Below the pieces are notes generated by a model. The model did not search any database and was not told where the DNA came from. It saw only the letters and a list, made by a program, of their open reading frames with translations. From the IMG/VR virus record IMGVR_UViG_3300025133_000020: a DNA stretch of 64,000 bases. One strand, given 5' to 3'. Positions 6,657 through 45,012 of the stretch are shown here, one piece after another (position 1 is the first letter of the stretch; each line of letters begins with the position of its first letter). This stretch comes from a virus. Lineage: Duplodnaviria > Caudoviricetes. A program made the translations under genes and the position numbers.

Positions 6657-9005
6657 ATGCTGAAAACAAAAATATCACCTTATGGAAAGGTAAAATTATA
6701 CTGGAACGACAAACCAGAGAATTACTCACGAGCCAATAGATTGGCTGTAAGGAACAGTTTCGCTAAAAAGTACGGAGTGGACAAGGAACGAGTGAAAGTC
6801 GTTTACAGACCCGTTAAAGTGGATAATAAGGGTAATCTCATCAAGCTTGATGGGGTTCAGATTGAGAGTGTGGGAGATATCCTGTATCAACGCAAGCTTT
6901 TCAAAGAGTGGTTGGTTAGGAATGAGAAGGATATTGATTTTGAGCGTCTGATTAAGCTGGATGATAAGGTCAATGCTGATTTGGATAGTGACGTAGTACA
7001 AGGTACGAATAAGAAGTGGGAGTTCGAATGGATAATGATAGACAACCTATTATCGTTCGGTGATGATAATTTCTTCCCTATTGATAGGTTTAAGGGTTTA
7101 ACAACAGTATGTTCGTCTCCAGAGAACCAAGGTGGTAAAACGACCTTAATCATTGATTCATTCAAGTTCTTATTATTCGGTATTACAACCAAGACCAGTA
7201 AGAACGAGCACATATTCAACAGATATCGAGATAAGAGTACTTTAGTAGTTAGAGGGTTAATGAAGATTGAGGGTGAGGAAGAATTCGTTATCGAACGTAA
7301 GTTATCACGTAAGGCTAAACGAGATGGTGGGTGGAATGTGAGTAGCACATTAAACTACTACAAGATGCTTCCTGATGACACTGAGGAATCGATGGATGAG
7401 GAACATACGATAAGAACGACCAGTAAGATACGTGAGACGGTAGGAGATGTTAAAGACTTCGACCTTGTATCGTTAGCTACTGGGGATAACTTGACATCAC
7501 TTATCGGTAATACGGTAACTGAGAATGGTAAGATATTCACCAGAATGATTGGTCTGGAAGTAATGGAGGTTAAGGAAGCCATAGCACGTAAGATGTATAA
7601 TGAGTTCCACAAGGATATGCAATCCAACATATACTCTAAGGTAGAACTTGAAGATGAGAATGAGATATCAGAAGCCAATTTAGAGTTGGTTAAGGAAACT
7701 CAAATTCAGGCTGATGAGAAGTTAATATCAACAACAACCAAGATTGAGAACTTGGAGACTGAAAAGAGTGCTCTATTGAGTAGTAAGCATGTGGTAGATA
7801 GTAAGTTATCCATGACCACTATTGAAAGTCTTGACCAGAGAATAGCCACTATCACCAATGATGGCAAGAAGGCTAAAGAAACTATGGATGAGTTGAAAGA
7901 GTCGTATAATGGGATTGAGGTTGATTATGATGAGTATAAGGAGAAGCGTACTGCCGATAAGATAGGTGAGCTTAAAACTAGCGTAGCTATTAAGAGGGTT
8001 GAAAGTACCAGACTCATAGCTGAATCTGATGCCTTGGATAAGGCTGAATCGTGTGTAACCTGTGGTAGAGCGTTAGAAGGGGTAGATAATTCTAAGATGG
8101 TTAAAGACCTATCAGCACGAATCACCAACCTAGATACTGAAATTATCGCTATTGATGAGGAATTACTTCAATTAAATGAAATAATTTCAAGCCTTGCTGA
8201 AGTGAAGGTTGAGTTGGAGCGTAAGCAACGTTTGGAGTTGGAGATTGAAAGGGGTAACCTAAAATTGACTAATTTAAGAGGTCAACTTACTGATGTGAGA
8301 GAGACTAAGAAGCAATTCGAAGCCAACGTTCAAGCAATCAAGCACAATCAAGATACTGATGTTAAAGTTAACAAGATTACATCAGACCTACAGATAGAGC
8401 GACACACAAAAGAAGAAACCATCAGAAAGATAGAAGTAATCAAAGGTGAAATCATCAAACATGACGCTAAGATTGCTATGAACAAGACCATTCTAACCAA
8501 GATGCTTAAAGAGGGTGAGATTGAGCGTATCTTTAAGATGTATATCGAGATGGTAGGTAAGAAGGGTGTATCCAAGATTATATTGAGGTCTGTCATTCCT
8601 ATCATTAATGCGGAATTGGATAGATTATTGGAAGGTGTATGCAACTTTGAGGTGGAAGTGCGTATGGATGATAAGAACGATGTTAACCTCATCATTATCA
8701 AAGATGGTGTGGAAGGGTCGTTGAAGTCAGGGAGTGGCTTAGAGAAGACGATAGCAGCCATAGGGCTTAGATGTGTTCTGGGTGTAGTATCGACATTACC
8801 GATGCCTAACTTCATCGCATTTGATGAGGTGTTCGGTAAGGTAGCGCAGGTGAATATACCATTACTAAAACCTCTCTTTGACAAAGTGGCAGATTCATAT
8901 GACAAAGTGTTTGTGATAACCCACAACGAACAAGCTAAGGATTGGGCGAACAAAATAATAACTGTCGTTGCGGATAAAAATGTATCCAAAATCGACTATA
9001 AATAA
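6657..9005 (+). CDS. sbcC: SbcC/Rad50/gp46-like ATPase
   Basis: NQGGKTT Walker A, long coiled coil with CVTC zinc hook, SGSGLEK signature, FDEVF Walker B, ITH motif. Confidence 0.9.
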   Translation: MLKTKISPYGKVKLYWNDKPENYSRANRLAVRNSFAKKYGVDKERVKVVYRPVKVDNKGNLIKLDGVQIESVGDILYQRKLFKEWLVRNEKDIDFERLIKLDDKVNADLDSDVVQGTNKKWEFEWIMIDNLLSFGDDNFFPIDRFKGLTTVCSSPENQGGKTTLIIDSFKFLLFGITTKTSKNEHIFNRYRDKSTLVVRGLMKIEGEEEFVIERKLSRKAKRDGGWNVSSTLNYYKMLPDDTEESMDEEHTIRTTSKIRETVGDVKDFDLVSLATGDNLTSLIGNTVTENGKIFTRMIGLEVMEVKEAIARKMYNEFHKDMQSNIYSKVELEDENEISEANLELVKETQIQADEKLISTTTKIENLETEKSALLSSKHVVDSKLSMTTIESLDQRIATITNDGKKAKETMDELKESYNGIEVDYDEYKEKRTADKIGELKTSVAIKRVESTRLIAESDALDKAESCVTCGRALEGVDNSKMVKDLSARITNLDTEIIAIDEELLQLNEIISSLAEVKVELERKQRLELEIERGNLKLTNLRGQLTDVRETKKQFEANVQAIKHNQDTDVKVNKITSDLQIERHTKEETIRKIEVIKGEIIKHDAKIAMNKTILTKMLKEGEIERIFKMYIEMVGKKGVSKIILRSVIPIINAELDRLLEGVCNFEVEVRMDDKNDVNLIIIKDGVEGSLKSGSGLEKTIAAIGLRCVLGVVSTLPMPNFIAFDEVFGKVAQVNIPLLKPLFDKVADSYDKVFVITHNEQAKDWANKIITVVADKNVSKIDYK

Positions 9006-29388: not shown

Positions 29389-29747
29389 GGGGGTGACTGG
29401 TTTTGACTGTCACTGATTGGGTATGTAAGCAAGCACTGGGATTTAGATTATACCAGTATAAAATGTGTCTGAAAAAACGAAGAGACGAGAATATCGTAAC
29501 TACAGGAGAATACCTTCTAAGAGAAGTCTTTGAAGGGGAGCTAGCGCTAGCTGCATAATAAGCGCCTAATTGAGTAAAGCTTGATAAAACCTCAGTGTCC
29601 ATTCATTGATGAGGTTAACTACAAAGAATGGTGGGTTTGCAAATTCCGACAAAGATTTGCTAGTTTGTTTATTTAGAAAAATATTCTAAGCTTGTAGAAA
29701 GTATATGTAACTTTAATAGGACGAGGGTTCGACTCCCTCCACCTCCA
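29389..29747 (+). ncRNA. ssrA: tmRNA
   Basis: 5' GGGGGTGACTGGTTTTGAC and 3' GGACGAGGGTTCGACTCCCTCCACCTCCA; G3-U70 pair; tag ORF 29502-29558 TGEYLLREVFEGELALAA; CCA not encoded. Confidence 0.92.
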
Positions 29748-42547: not shown

Positions 42548-42627
42548 CCAGAATTACCGAGCCAAGCTTATATCTTGGATATTCGTAGCGGTTGTTGCAA
42601 ACAAGGGTTCGAATCCCTTATTCTGGA
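42548..42627 (+). tRNA. rearranged tRNA-Ile(TAT)
   Basis: CCAGAAT/ATTCTGG; CGAG/TTCG enclosing CCAAG CTTATAT CTTGG; perfect T arm; A73. Confidence 0.75.
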
Positions 42628-42683
42628 CTGGAGGTTTACTTTTTGTACTTTAGCCTTATATTTATATCTAAACAATATAGATT

Positions 42684-43328
42684 ATGGCAAGAAAAGAAAA
42701 AAAGTACCACTACATATACAAAACGACTAATTTACTTAGTGGTAGATATTACATAGGAATGCATAGCACCGATAACCTTGACGATGGTTATATGGGTTCT
42801 GGAACAAGACTTAGGCGTTCACTTAATAAACATGGTGAGGAAAATCATAAGGTCGAGTTCTTAGAGTTCCTTGATACTCGGAAAGAGTTGAAGGAACGGG
42901 AAGCTGAAATAGTTAACCTTAATGAGGTAGCCAAAGTGGACTGTATGAATCTGAAGGTGGGTGGTGAAGGTGGGTTATCGAGTGAAGAACACAAGGTAGC
43001 ATTTATAAATGCTGGTATTGTGGGTAGAGAATCCTTTAGGGATAAACTAACAAATGATAAGGAATTCCGTAAGAGACATATAGATATGTTTACTGGGATG
43101 GTAAAGGAACGTCACGCTTCTGGTGAAGTTAATTACAATACGTTTGAAGGTAAAACGCATACAGAGGAAACTAAAGAGAAGATGAGGAAGTCTAAGAACG
43201 TAGGTAAAGCTAACTCACAATACGGCACTTGTTGGATAATCAGAGATGGTGATAATAAGAAGATAAATAAAGAAGACCTTAACGAATATCTTGATAAAGG
43301 TTGGGTTAAGGGTCGTAAAATGAAATAA
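42684..43328 (+). CDS. GIY-YIG (Seg-like) homing endonuclease with NUMOD3
   Basis: Paralog of 40771. Confidence 0.85.
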   Translation: MARKEKKYHYIYKTTNLLSGRYYIGMHSTDNLDDGYMGSGTRLRRSLNKHGEENHKVEFLEFLDTRKELKEREAEIVNLNEVAKVDCMNLKVGGEGGLSSEEHKVAFINAGIVGRESFRDKLTNDKEFRKRHIDMFTGMVKERHASGEVNYNTFEGKTHTEETKEKMRKSKNVGKANSQYGTCWIIRDGDNKKINKEDLNEYLDKGWVKGRKMK

Positions 43329-43333
43329 TATAT

Positions 43334-43405
43334 CGCGGGGTGGAGCAGTAGTAGCTCGTTAGGCTCATAACCTAGAGGTCGAAGGTGCAAATCCTTCTCC
43401 CGCTT
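43334..43405 (+). tRNA. tRNA-Met(CAT), initiator-like
   Basis: C1-U72 mismatch, CGCGGGG acceptor. Confidence 0.8.
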
Positions 43406-43416
43406 CTAAAACATAT

Positions 43417-43503
43417 CGCGGATATGAAGGCTGGTGGTGATGCTTGGGTAGTCTCATAAGCTACTATCGTAATGATGTATAGGTTCGATTCCTATATCCG
43501 CAA
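43417..43503 (+). tRNA. tRNA-Met(CAT), initiator-like with long variable arm
   Basis: C1-A72 mismatch; extra ATCG-TAA-TGAT arm. Confidence 0.75.
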
Positions 43504-43508
43504 CTAAA

Positions 43509-43817
43509 GGGGGTGACCGAGTTCTGGGAGACTCAACCTTAAAGCACGAAAATGGTCGTGAGGCAGTAACATGTCGGTCAATAGTAATTTCAATCTTTCC
43601 CACGGTTTACAGAATGCACCTATAGCGACCAAAGTTCTTTTGGTGGTGAATAAAAACAAGCAAGGGAAGCAAGCTCTCCAAGAAAGATTGACCCGATGAA
43701 ATATCGACTTAGTAAGAGAGTAATCAGTGGATTTGATATGAAGCGCTGACAGAAAAATGCTAGACAGACGAGTAAACGGTTCCATTGATTATGTGGGTTC
43801 GAATCCCATCATCTCCA
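43509..43817 (+). ncRNA. second tmRNA-like / large Ala-type tRNA-like RNA (309 nt)
   Basis: GGGGGTG/CATCTCC acceptor with G3-U70 and A73, canonical T arm, highly paired interior; no ALAA tag found. Confidence 0.6.
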
Positions 43818-43830
43818 CAAAAAATTATAT

Positions 43831-43901
43831 CGCGGGTAGCTTAGTAGCAATCAGGTCTCATAAGCCTTGACGTGTAAAGGGAGCGTTACCCTTACCCGCA
43901 T
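43831..43901 (+). tRNA. degenerate tRNA-Met(CAT)
   Basis: CGCGGGT/ACCCGCA acceptor and CTCATAA loop; D and T arms are eroded. Confidence 0.5.
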
Positions 43902-43941
43902 CAAAAAACGCTTGGTTCGCATAGTGGCTGATTGCATAAAC

Positions 43942-44023
43942 GGATGAGTAGCCTAGTGGTCAGGCAACAGACTGTTAATCTGTGAGGGAAACTTCTACGT
44001 TGGTTCGAACCCAACCTCATCCG
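43942..44023 (+). tRNA. tRNA-Asn(GTT) with long variable arm
   Basis: ACAGA-CTGTTAA-TCTGT; GAGG-GAAA-CTTC extra arm; G73. Confidence 0.8.
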
Positions 44024-44067
44024 CACTTTTACTTTTATGTGTATATTTATTAACAAAGACAGTTAAT

Positions 44068-44502
44068 ATGCCAAGGAAAGTAAATGACGAATTAATAGTG
44101 AAGATGAAGGAAGATTATGCTTCTGGTAAATCTTCTAGAACCATAGCTAAAGACGTTGGTATTAGTAAGAGTACTGTAATGGTATATGTTAATCCTAAAG
44201 TATTGACACCCGAAGAGATTGAGGAAAAGAGGCGTAAGAATGTTGAAACTGTAACTAATTGGAGACGAAATTTAAAGAAGAGGGGTATCGACTATAAGGG
44301 TGGTTCATGTGAAGTATGTGGTTATGATAAATGTAATGAGGCGTTAGAATTTCACCACAAAGACCCAAATGAGAAGGATTTTGGTATTGGCGCTAACGGT
44401 CATACTAGGTCTTGGGAGAAAGTGAAAATAGAGTTAGATAAGTGTATGATAGTTTGCTCTAATTGTCATAGAGAAATACACGCTGGATTAATAGAATGTT
44501 AA
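44068..44502 (+). CDS. HNH endonuclease with N-terminal HTH
   Basis: CEVC..ALEFHH..VCSNCHREIH. Confidence 0.85.
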   Translation: MPRKVNDELIVKMKEDYASGKSSRTIAKDVGISKSTVMVYVNPKVLTPEEIEEKRRKNVETVTNWRRNLKKRGIDYKGGSCEVCGYDKCNEALEFHHKDPNEKDFGIGANGHTRSWEKVKIELDKCMIVCSNCHREIHAGLIEC

Positions 44503-44543
44503 CTCTCAGGTCGAGATTTCGAAATTCTCACTAGGAGCAATAA

Positions 44544-44618
44544 CCCGATATGGTGTAATGGCTAGCACGACACTCTCATAAGGTGTACGACACAGTTCGA
44601 TTCTGTGTATCGGGACCA
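44544..44618 (+). tRNA. tRNA with CAT anticodon (elongator Met or Ile2)
   Basis: Canonical cloverleaf with encoded CCA. Confidence 0.88.
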
Positions 44619-45012
44619 TTGACATTCTCAGATATTAGTTGTATATTGGTATTATGGACTTAATTACCGATAATAAAAGATTAGAATATCGTCACATAGT
44701 CGAACATGAGGGTGAGACGTGGGTTAGGAAAGAATACATGTCACCCCAATGCTTCGCATGGGAAGATGAACCAGATAGACTTAGAGATTCACATACCATT
44801 TCTTGGTATCCAATGGATGATGAGGATACTCTTTATGGTTATTACAGTTGTTCTATGGGTTGGTCTAAGGATGGACACTTACATAAAGACAACCCGATAC
44901 CAGAAATAGAAGTGGAATTCAGGAAAACCAATGGTAAAGATTTATGTTATTTCAACAACATAGAAACACCTCAATAACCCATATTGACATTCTCAGATAT
45001 TAGTAGTATATT
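44618..45012 (+). repeat. duplicated promoter cassette
   Basis: ATTGACATTCTCAGATATTAGT at 44618-44639 and 44983-45004, each followed by GTATATT and an ORF. Confidence 0.8.
44654..44977 (+). CDS. hypothetical protein
   Basis: ATG directly after the duplicated promoter. Confidence 0.55.
   Translation: MDLITDNKRLEYRHIVEHEGETWVRKEYMSPQCFAWEDEPDRLRDSHTISWYPMDDEDTLYGYYSCSMGWSKDGHLHKDNPIPEIEVEFRKTNGKDLCYFNNIETPQ

Follow-up and report, generated by a model that had tools for sequence, protein, structure and literature searches.

A tRNA-like-ended orphan element in a tRNA operon of a marine jumbo phage, a candidate tag-less competitor in ribosome rescue

Introduction

What kind of gene begins and ends like a tmRNA, lies among tRNA genes and has an interior that resembles neither? 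The question is raised by a 309-nt element (positions 43509-43817) of an uncultured marine jumbo phage that also encodes a genuine tmRNA. A sequence-only reading of the locus had taken the element for a second tmRNA-like RNA with alanine identity but no recognisable degradation tag, leaving room for a divergent rescue RNA, a decoy or a tRNA-Ala with a large insertion. Here we examine the ends, the interior, the neighbourhood and the distribution of the element, and weigh these readings against others that the locus suggests, including that of a non-functional relic.

Genomic context

The window, 64,000 nucleotides of a phage contig of at least 212 kb, has a G+C content of about 38% and carries all its genes on the plus strand. 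The host of the phage is probably a marine Bacteroidota. The landmarks on which the analysis relies are the following.

29389-29747, plus strand: genuine phage tmRNA (Rfam RF00023, 85.5 bits; tag frame ending in ...GELALAA, then two stops)
42684-43328, plus strand: GIY-YIG homing endonuclease gene, upstream flank of the element (PF01541, NUMOD3)
43418-43501, plus strand: CAU tRNA on the upstream side, atypical in its long variable arm and odd D arm (weak Rfam tRNA-Sec match, 22 bits; called tRNA-Met by ARAGORN only at a lowered threshold)
43831-43902, plus strand: downstream neighbour, a CAU tRNA with T loop AGCGUUA (ARAGORN; family in 43 IMG/VR contigs)
44068-44502, plus strand: HTH-HNH homing endonuclease gene, downstream flank of the element (domain match; homologues found)

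The genuine tmRNA is directly preceded on its 5' side by the genes for DnaJ, a metallopeptidase-like protein and ClpP, and this order is kept in relatives at 60-65% protein identity, the tmRNA being conserved in contigs L292-L298. No SmpB was found among the 27 neighbouring proteins checked. The phage encodes a CCA-adding enzyme (34490-35689), and CCA is encoded neither in its tRNAs nor in its tmRNA. It also has a tRNA with a CUA anticodon (an amber suppressor) at 31568; in a related marine phage contig (L309, Logan SRR29645036_3424) a tRNA with a UUA anticodon, of the ochre-suppressor type, lies at 8602-8673 inside a tRNA array.

GIY-YIG and HNH homing endonuclease genes are interspersed among the large tRNA arrays of the phage, and the array of the element holds at least five homing endonuclease genes within about 8 kb. 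Elsewhere, between the suppressor tRNA and the gene for the CCA-adding enzyme, a gene of GIY-YIG type (32785-33384) matches the 'group I intron endonuclease' family TIGR01453 at 54.9 bits, slightly below the cut-off, and makes the RNA-gene region still denser in homing endonucleases.

Within its tRNA operon the element starts 7 nt 3' of the preceding tRNA and ends 13 nt 5' of the next, and no terminator was found within 42600-44700. Both neighbours are unusual in their own right. A gene similar to the upstream tRNA occupies the same place in the nearest relative, L308. The downstream tRNA has the T arm GGG-AGCGUUA-CCC, which is not of the universal GGUUCGAAUCC type; its anticodon loop and T arm recur in 43 IMG/VR phage contigs (L310-L352), among which the acceptor and anticodon stems differ in sequence and keep their pairing. 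By these sequence comparisons, it looks like a representative of a widespread class of phage tRNA(CAU) with a non-canonical T loop.

Further atypical RNA genes came to light in the window and in other phage contigs. In a tRNA-like gene without an anticodon, at 32411-32475 (surroundings 32310-32557), a single long helix is framed by an acceptor stem with all 7 bp formed (GGGGAUG/CAUCCCC, G3:C70), and further cloverleaf-like units adjoin the gene; it seems to be one of several non-decoding tRNA-like RNAs in this phage. In contig L165 (IMG/VR 3300032214_000555) a GOLLD RNA (2233-2646, 283 bits) is flanked by a phage tmRNA on one side and by about 30 arrayed tRNAs on the other. In G017, the contig of L341, a sub-threshold tmRNA match of 192 nt (29.8 bits) and, at a distance of about 170 nt along that strand, a separate match to the tag region (143646-144063 overall) may correspond to a permuted or otherwise unusual phage tmRNA.

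The tRNA-like ends

Element positions are counted from window position 43509 as 1. The two ends comprise four features.

43509-43515, plus strand: 5' strand of the acceptor stem, GGGGGUG (7 of 7 pairs with 43810-43816; same as the 5' strand of the true tmRNA)
43516-43534, plus strand: linker A8-C9-C10 and D-arm-like hairpin GAGU / loop UCUGGGAG / ACUC, holding GG and the GAC triplet (pair probability 0.76-0.87)
43793-43809, plus strand: uninterrupted T arm GUGGG-UUCGAAU-CCCAU with a canonical T loop (5 of 5 T-stem pairs; Rfam alignment posterior near 1)
43810-43817, plus strand: 3' strand of the acceptor stem, CAUCUCC, and discriminator A73, with no encoded CCA (pairing; comparison of its end with that of the true tmRNA)

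The sequence features listed by the sequence-only reading were all found where it had placed them. The tmRNA-like start it had pointed out is real, inasmuch as the element begins with GGGGGUGA and shares its first 9 nt with the true tmRNA at 29389; at the other end, 20 of the last 25 nt are identical between the two. So is the alanine-type end, with all seven acceptor pairs of GGGGGUG/CAUCUCC formed, G3:U70 and A73 present, and a second wobble pair at G5:U68. The G3:U70 pair and discriminator A73 constitute the identity recognised by AlaRS. Position 8 is an A, as in the phage tmRNA and the tmRNAs of its relatives, and a U in the tRNAs of the window. The D region, on the other hand, sets the element apart from the tmRNA clade of the phage, for it has 6 extra nt able to form a D-like stem of 4-5 bp; taken by itself, the resulting hairpin is no more stable than shuffled sequences (z 0.16). 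Combining a fully paired acceptor stem with a canonical T arm and the spacing of a tRNA operon, the tRNA-like ends are not a product of chance.

The interior and its folding

Between the ends, single-sequence folding predicts three structured regions.

43545-43575, plus strand: two small predicted hairpins, element positions 37-52 and 54-67 (z -2.0 with chosen boundaries; single-sequence prediction)
43590-43691, plus strand: central domain closed by a 10-bp helix and enclosing a hairpin at element positions 117-139 (pair probability 0.6-0.8; z -1.3 for the whole domain)
43720-43792, plus strand: 3' hairpin domain closed by a 12-bp helix, element positions 212-223/273-284 (-17 kcal/mol, z -2.57)

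Two of the helices exceed what shuffled sequences produce. The 12-bp helix has pair probabilities of 0.98-1.0 when the sequence is folded with its ends constrained, and only 3 of 200 shuffles are equally stable; its 3' strand continues straight into the T stem, at the place of the variable arm of class II tRNAs or of tmRNA helix 2a. The 10-bp Watson-Crick helix 82-91/174-183 is the longest in the element, a length reached by 3% of shuffles (p 0.03). The four interior pairings singled out earlier exist as such: CACGA/UCGUG at 37-41/48-52, CAAUCUUUC/GAAAGAUUG within the 10-bp helix, CUCUC/GAGAG at 166-170/208-212, and UCAGUG/CGCUGA at 216-221/235-240. The last of these contains one G:U pair and competes with the much stronger 12-bp helix, and the third, proposed as a possible pseudoknot, does cross the 10-bp helix (82-91/174-183 with 166-170/208-212, the only crossing helices in the element), its five base pairs being at chance level.

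Over its full length, the element is not unusually structured. It contains 26 Watson-Crick stems of at least 5 bp, below the mean of 500 dinucleotide shuffles (35 +/- 5.6), and its whole-molecule folding energy is ordinary (z -0.35, versus -1.6 for the true tmRNA).

Comparison with the tmRNA family

The sequence-only reading had proposed ARAGORN and the Rfam tmRNA model as checks, and neither identifies the element as a tmRNA. ARAGORN called no tmRNA in it even at lowered thresholds, a weak result given that the program misses the true tmRNA as well. The score against RF00023 is 18.1 bits, below the cut-off of 47, in an end-to-end alignment that is confident only at the two ends. Plain tRNAs of 17 other jumbo-phage contigs reach 14-39 bits with this model, whereas real phage tmRNAs score 55-124 bits, and all 13 of the 13 standard one-piece phage tmRNAs that ARAGORN misses reach 77-101 bits. 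The sub-threshold matches to RF00023 in those 17 contigs are all far shorter than the element, nearly all being the size of a tRNA and the longest 192 nt.

As to ARAGORN itself, the program overlooks the tmRNA at 29389-29747 and those of L292, L296 and L298, which Rfam scores at 55-86 bits, so that surveys based on it will undercount tmRNAs in this phage clade.

The specific tmRNA hallmarks reported as absent are indeed missing. The element has UUAU in place of the GGAC before the T arm, where the tmRNAs of the clade have GGAC, AGAC or ACAC, and only the GAC on the 5' side is kept; among the C-termini of all its reading frames, none is AA, LAA or VAA. A helix 2 enclosing the interior could be built only from UC and AACC with GGUU...GA, at the cost of a 4-nt bulge, and the strand concerned (273-284) pairs locally with 212-223 at a probability of 0.99. 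Nothing recognisable as any of the pseudoknots PK1-PK4 was found, and when the interior is aligned by the covariance model, posterior values are low and many of the pairs are non-canonical. Local alignment of the interior with four tmRNAs of the clade does no better than with shuffles (p 0.67-0.89), and an nhmmer comparison with about 220 phage tmRNAs from IMG/VR gave no match. The element falls outside the tmRNA family, which it resembles in nothing but its ends and size. Its interior fails every tmRNA criterion tested, so that the label 'divergent tmRNA' would derive from the ends alone.

Splicing, coding and repeat content

The notion of a tRNA-Ala whose large insertion is spliced out, leaving a normal tRNA, found no support. 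No intron family matched the element at E values up to 10, and the intron mode of ARAGORN (-i) returned nothing that uses the ends of the element. When every segment from element positions 24-59 to 235-279 was removed in turn, none of the 1,620 trial products was called a tRNA. Moreover, A8, the three-base linker and the missing nucleotide 26 argue against a tRNA core in the element. In tmRNA genes the known introns interrupt the T loop (PMC11915505), which in the element is intact.

Other contents of the interior were considered and rejected. A 93-aa open reading frame on the minus strand (43504-43785) and a 42-aa one on the plus strand (43571-43699) have no Pfam or PHROG match and were treated as chance occurrences. 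A GAGG 7 nt 5' of the AUG of the latter could be read as a ribosome-binding site, but the neighbouring phage genes are without such a motif. An interior made of a repeat, a paralogue or a decayed endonuclease gene was likewise set aside: the window holds no paralogue. Among about 360 loci the interior has no nucleotide or translated match, and neither a donor trace nor a protein remnant or repeat was detected.

Distribution

Six assemblies, each from a different sample, contain the element without a single letter of difference. The contigs of these assemblies are 99.9-100% identical to the window throughout, and that of L291 99.7-100%, the surrounding DNA differing by 0-0.3%. The identical copies hence represent one phage species, and the six assemblies carry no information on selection. 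Among contigs from four DNA runs, the element is covered, in identical form, in one run only, those of the other runs matching just the neighbouring tRNAs or the T arm. A look for RNA sequencing runs that contain the phage returned none.

The comparison with relatives is more informative. In the nearest one, L308, the HNH protein is 85% identical and the flanking tRNAs 90-100% identical, and the locus consists of tRNA-Met, one long-armed CAU tRNA, tRNA-Asn and the HNH gene, with 37 nt replacing both the element and the second CAU tRNA. Relatives at 60-65% identity of the CCA-adding enzyme keep the DnaJ-ClpP-tmRNA genes and the unusual tRNA-Ile genes, and the element is absent from their syntenic array. 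Being missing from L308 and from more distant relatives, the element is dispensable.

Searches farther afield brought up no homologue. A blastn comparison with 50,697 phage records yielded only T-arm-sized matches to tRNA-Ala genes, and scans of IMG/VR for both ends at two spacings retrieved about 220 phage tmRNAs, none of them similar inside. Matches in a JGI metagenome scan were tmRNAs, or chance pairs ending in the tRNA-Ala of rRNA operons, and the exact 18-mer of the D region had one chance match, inside a coding region. The loci around 47 GIY-YIG relatives, those around 43 relatives of the downstream tRNA, the contigs of the closest HNH relatives and 17 whole jumbo-phage contigs scanned with RF00023 are all devoid of a homologue, and viral-contig searches with single neighbour proteins (a 328-aa protein and GP88) found nothing. 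When alanine-type ends separated by 120-480 nt were sought with a custom scan, other 'second' candidates did emerge (e.g. L152 253-657); these end in ordinary tRNAs and were rejected.

Since no diverged homologue was found, neither purifying selection nor covariation is in evidence. Among the searches made, the element appears confined to one phage species. Set in a region turned over by endonucleases, it was thus either gained in this lineage or lost from the relatives.

Discussion

The conjunction of alanine-type, tmRNA-flavoured ends, tRNA-operon spacing, two helices above chance and an orphan interior favours a real RNA gene over a relic, and we consider the element to be probably a functional RNA gene of some kind. 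As to its role, our preferred reading, to which we give a probability of about 0.35, is that of a processed RNA with tRNA-like ends that acts in ribosome rescue as a competitor or decoy devoid of a tag. Here the tmRNA-type tRNA-like domain of alanine identity (acceptor stem, T arm, A8 and the GG of the D-loop analogue) would form the scaffold that frames an orphan insert, about 255 nt long. The element would be transcribed together with the flanking tRNAs, cut by RNase P at G1 and trimmed at its 3' end, CCA being supplied by the CCA-adding enzyme of the phage, and G3:U70 with A73 would make it a candidate substrate of AlaRS. Through its tRNA-like end it might then compete for the partners of tmRNA, namely AlaRS, EF-Tu, SmpB and stalled ribosomes. 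We infer transcription, processing, alanylation, SmpB binding and the effect on rescue alike. What the element cannot do is work as a tagging tmRNA, because it has no resume codon context, tag frame, tmRNA pseudoknots or enclosing helix 2.

Several observations count against a tag-less competitor or decoy. The replacement of the 3' GGAC by UUAU makes SmpB binding doubtful. The tRNA-like domain includes a predicted D-stem-like hairpin, which is absent from tmRNAs. The ordinary folding energy and the below-mean stem count of the element count against the reading as well, as do the failure to find a diverged homologue and the absence of the element from the relatives. It would also be odd for a phage to inhibit a pathway that it encodes itself, with its own tmRNA and ClpP, and this weighs against the reading. 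A bolder version holds that the phage has two rescue RNAs: the tmRNA next to ClpP would mark proteins for destruction, and the second, alanine-charged RNA would enter stalled ribosomes without a tag, releasing or diverting them without proteolysis, or else blocking host tmRNA-SmpB. We regard this version as decidedly unlikely, although if true it would amount to a large, structured, tag-less trans-translation RNA of an undescribed kind.

A serious rival, absent from the sequence-only reading, is that the element is a non-functional relic: a tmRNA gene or tRNA-Ala-like gene whose middle was replaced in the course of endonuclease-driven shuffling and whose ends have survived only because this happened recently. 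The setting fits, with GIY-YIG and HNH genes on either side, at least five homing endonuclease genes within about 8 kb and an insertion/deletion difference relative to L308; so do the failure to find a family for the element anywhere searched, an interior unlike that of any tmRNA, the lost 3' GGAC, and a stem number and folding energy at chance level. It would nonetheless be a tight coincidence for both acceptor halves, the T arm, the D-loop analogue and the exact operon spacing all to survive. The interior also has two helices beyond chance, one of them stacked on the T arm. No donor sequence, protein remnant or repeat could be traced, and 300 nt of junk are rarely kept in phage genomes. On balance we rate a relic only a little less probable than a competitor or decoy. 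We are more sceptical of a tRNA-scaffolded non-coding RNA unrelated to ribosome rescue, in which the ends would provide only processing and stability, as in the species 1 and 2 RNAs of phage T4 or in engineered tRNA scaffolds, and the insert would be the functional part, for instance by binding a host or phage protein. In topology the element equals a tRNA scaffold in which the insert takes the place of the anticodon arm, the window has other anticodon-less tRNA-like genes (32310-32557), and large non-coding RNAs do occur in phage tRNA arrays elsewhere, as the GOLLD RNA of L165 illustrates; yet a mere processing handle has no need of the alanine identity set (G3:U70, A73) or of A8, and the insert has neither an Rfam match nor homologues, so that we hold this explanation to be unlikely.

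The two remaining explanations keep the element within known classes, and the comparisons above bear on them directly. A working second tmRNA with an unconventional tag, or with readthrough of UAG by the amber suppressor, would mark rescued proteins differently or leave them undegraded. The tmRNA-type ends agree with it, there are open frames 3' of the UAG-UAA at element positions 74-79 (21 codons in frame 2 and 45 in frame 3, for example), the CUA-anticodon tRNA at 31568 is available, and long, odd tags are known in phage tmRNAs. Nevertheless, an Rfam score of 18 bits against a cut-off of 47 compares badly with the 77-101 bits of the standard phage tmRNAs missed by ARAGORN, no frame has a hydrophobic AA-type end, pseudoknots and an enclosing helix 2 are not recognisable, the strand by the T arm pairs locally, and no similarity to the tmRNAs of the clade was seen; we deem such a molecule very improbable. 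Least credible is an intron-interrupted tRNA of alanine identity that is spliced to a normal tRNA, which we would give hardly any weight. An insert of about 230 nt would suit small group I introns, homing endonuclease genes are nearby, and a UAA anticodon loop on a stem of 4 bp, AACC/GGUU, could result from joining UUAAAG, close to the 5' junction, with GUAAAC, close to the 3' junction. Against this stand the failure to match any intron family at E values up to 10, the blank intron mode of ARAGORN, the 1,620 splice products without a single tRNA, the A8, the 3-nt linker and the missing nucleotide 26, together with a T loop that is intact where the known introns of tmRNA genes are inserted (PMC11915505).

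Among described molecules, the standard one-piece tmRNA (SsrA, RF00023), that of the phage included, shares with the element an acceptor stem with G3:U70 and A73, A8, the D-loop analogue UCUGG...GAC, a canonical T arm, the lack of an anticodon and of an encoded CCA, a length near 300 nt and a place in the translation and tRNA region of the phage. The element differs from it in being without tag frame, resume context, recognisable pseudoknots, long helix 2 and 3' GGAC, and in having a D-stem-like hairpin. In operon position it can be likened, by description, to the stable RNAs C and D of phage T4 (species 1 and 2), non-tRNA RNAs among phage tRNA genes. These T4 RNAs, of about 120-140 nt, are encoded in the tRNA cluster, have tRNA-like ends and are processed like tRNAs; neither alanine identity nor a tmRNA-type A8 is known in them. 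Class II tRNAs offer a structural parallel, with a GG-bearing D-arm-like hairpin and a long helix ending directly at the T stem, and the tRNA-like domain of tmRNA together with SmpB has been reported to mimic them (Bessho et al. 2007, as cited in PMC4131195). The element nonetheless has no anticodon arm, its 'variable arm' would measure 73 nt, and neither ARAGORN nor the Rfam tRNA model recognises it as a tRNA.

A functional precedent comes from tmRNAs reduced to their tRNA-like domain. The one of mycobacteriophage DS6A is a proposed means of shutting down trans-translation in the host; tmRNA is strongly inhibited by a similar molecule, which may titrate SmpB, and tmRNAs without a coding sequence are also present in jakobid mitochondria and in the plastids of Mallomonadaceae (PMC4131195, PMC11915505). 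Like them, the element has a tRNA-like domain of tmRNA type and no tag reading frame. However, such RNAs consist of little beyond that domain (about 65 nt in plastids), whereas the element holds an unrelated interior of about 255 nt between the two halves; no sequence relationship between them was found, and the likeness to DS6A is one of description.

Although it is a single-species orphan, the element is a cheap and well-defined candidate. If the reading of it as a tRNA-like domain around an orphan insert is true, it would constitute a natural tRNA scaffold carrying a cargo, in which the message domain has been swapped and which exists alongside a normal tmRNA and ClpP. And were its function that of a decoy, it would mean that phages tune ribosome rescue by more than one RNA.
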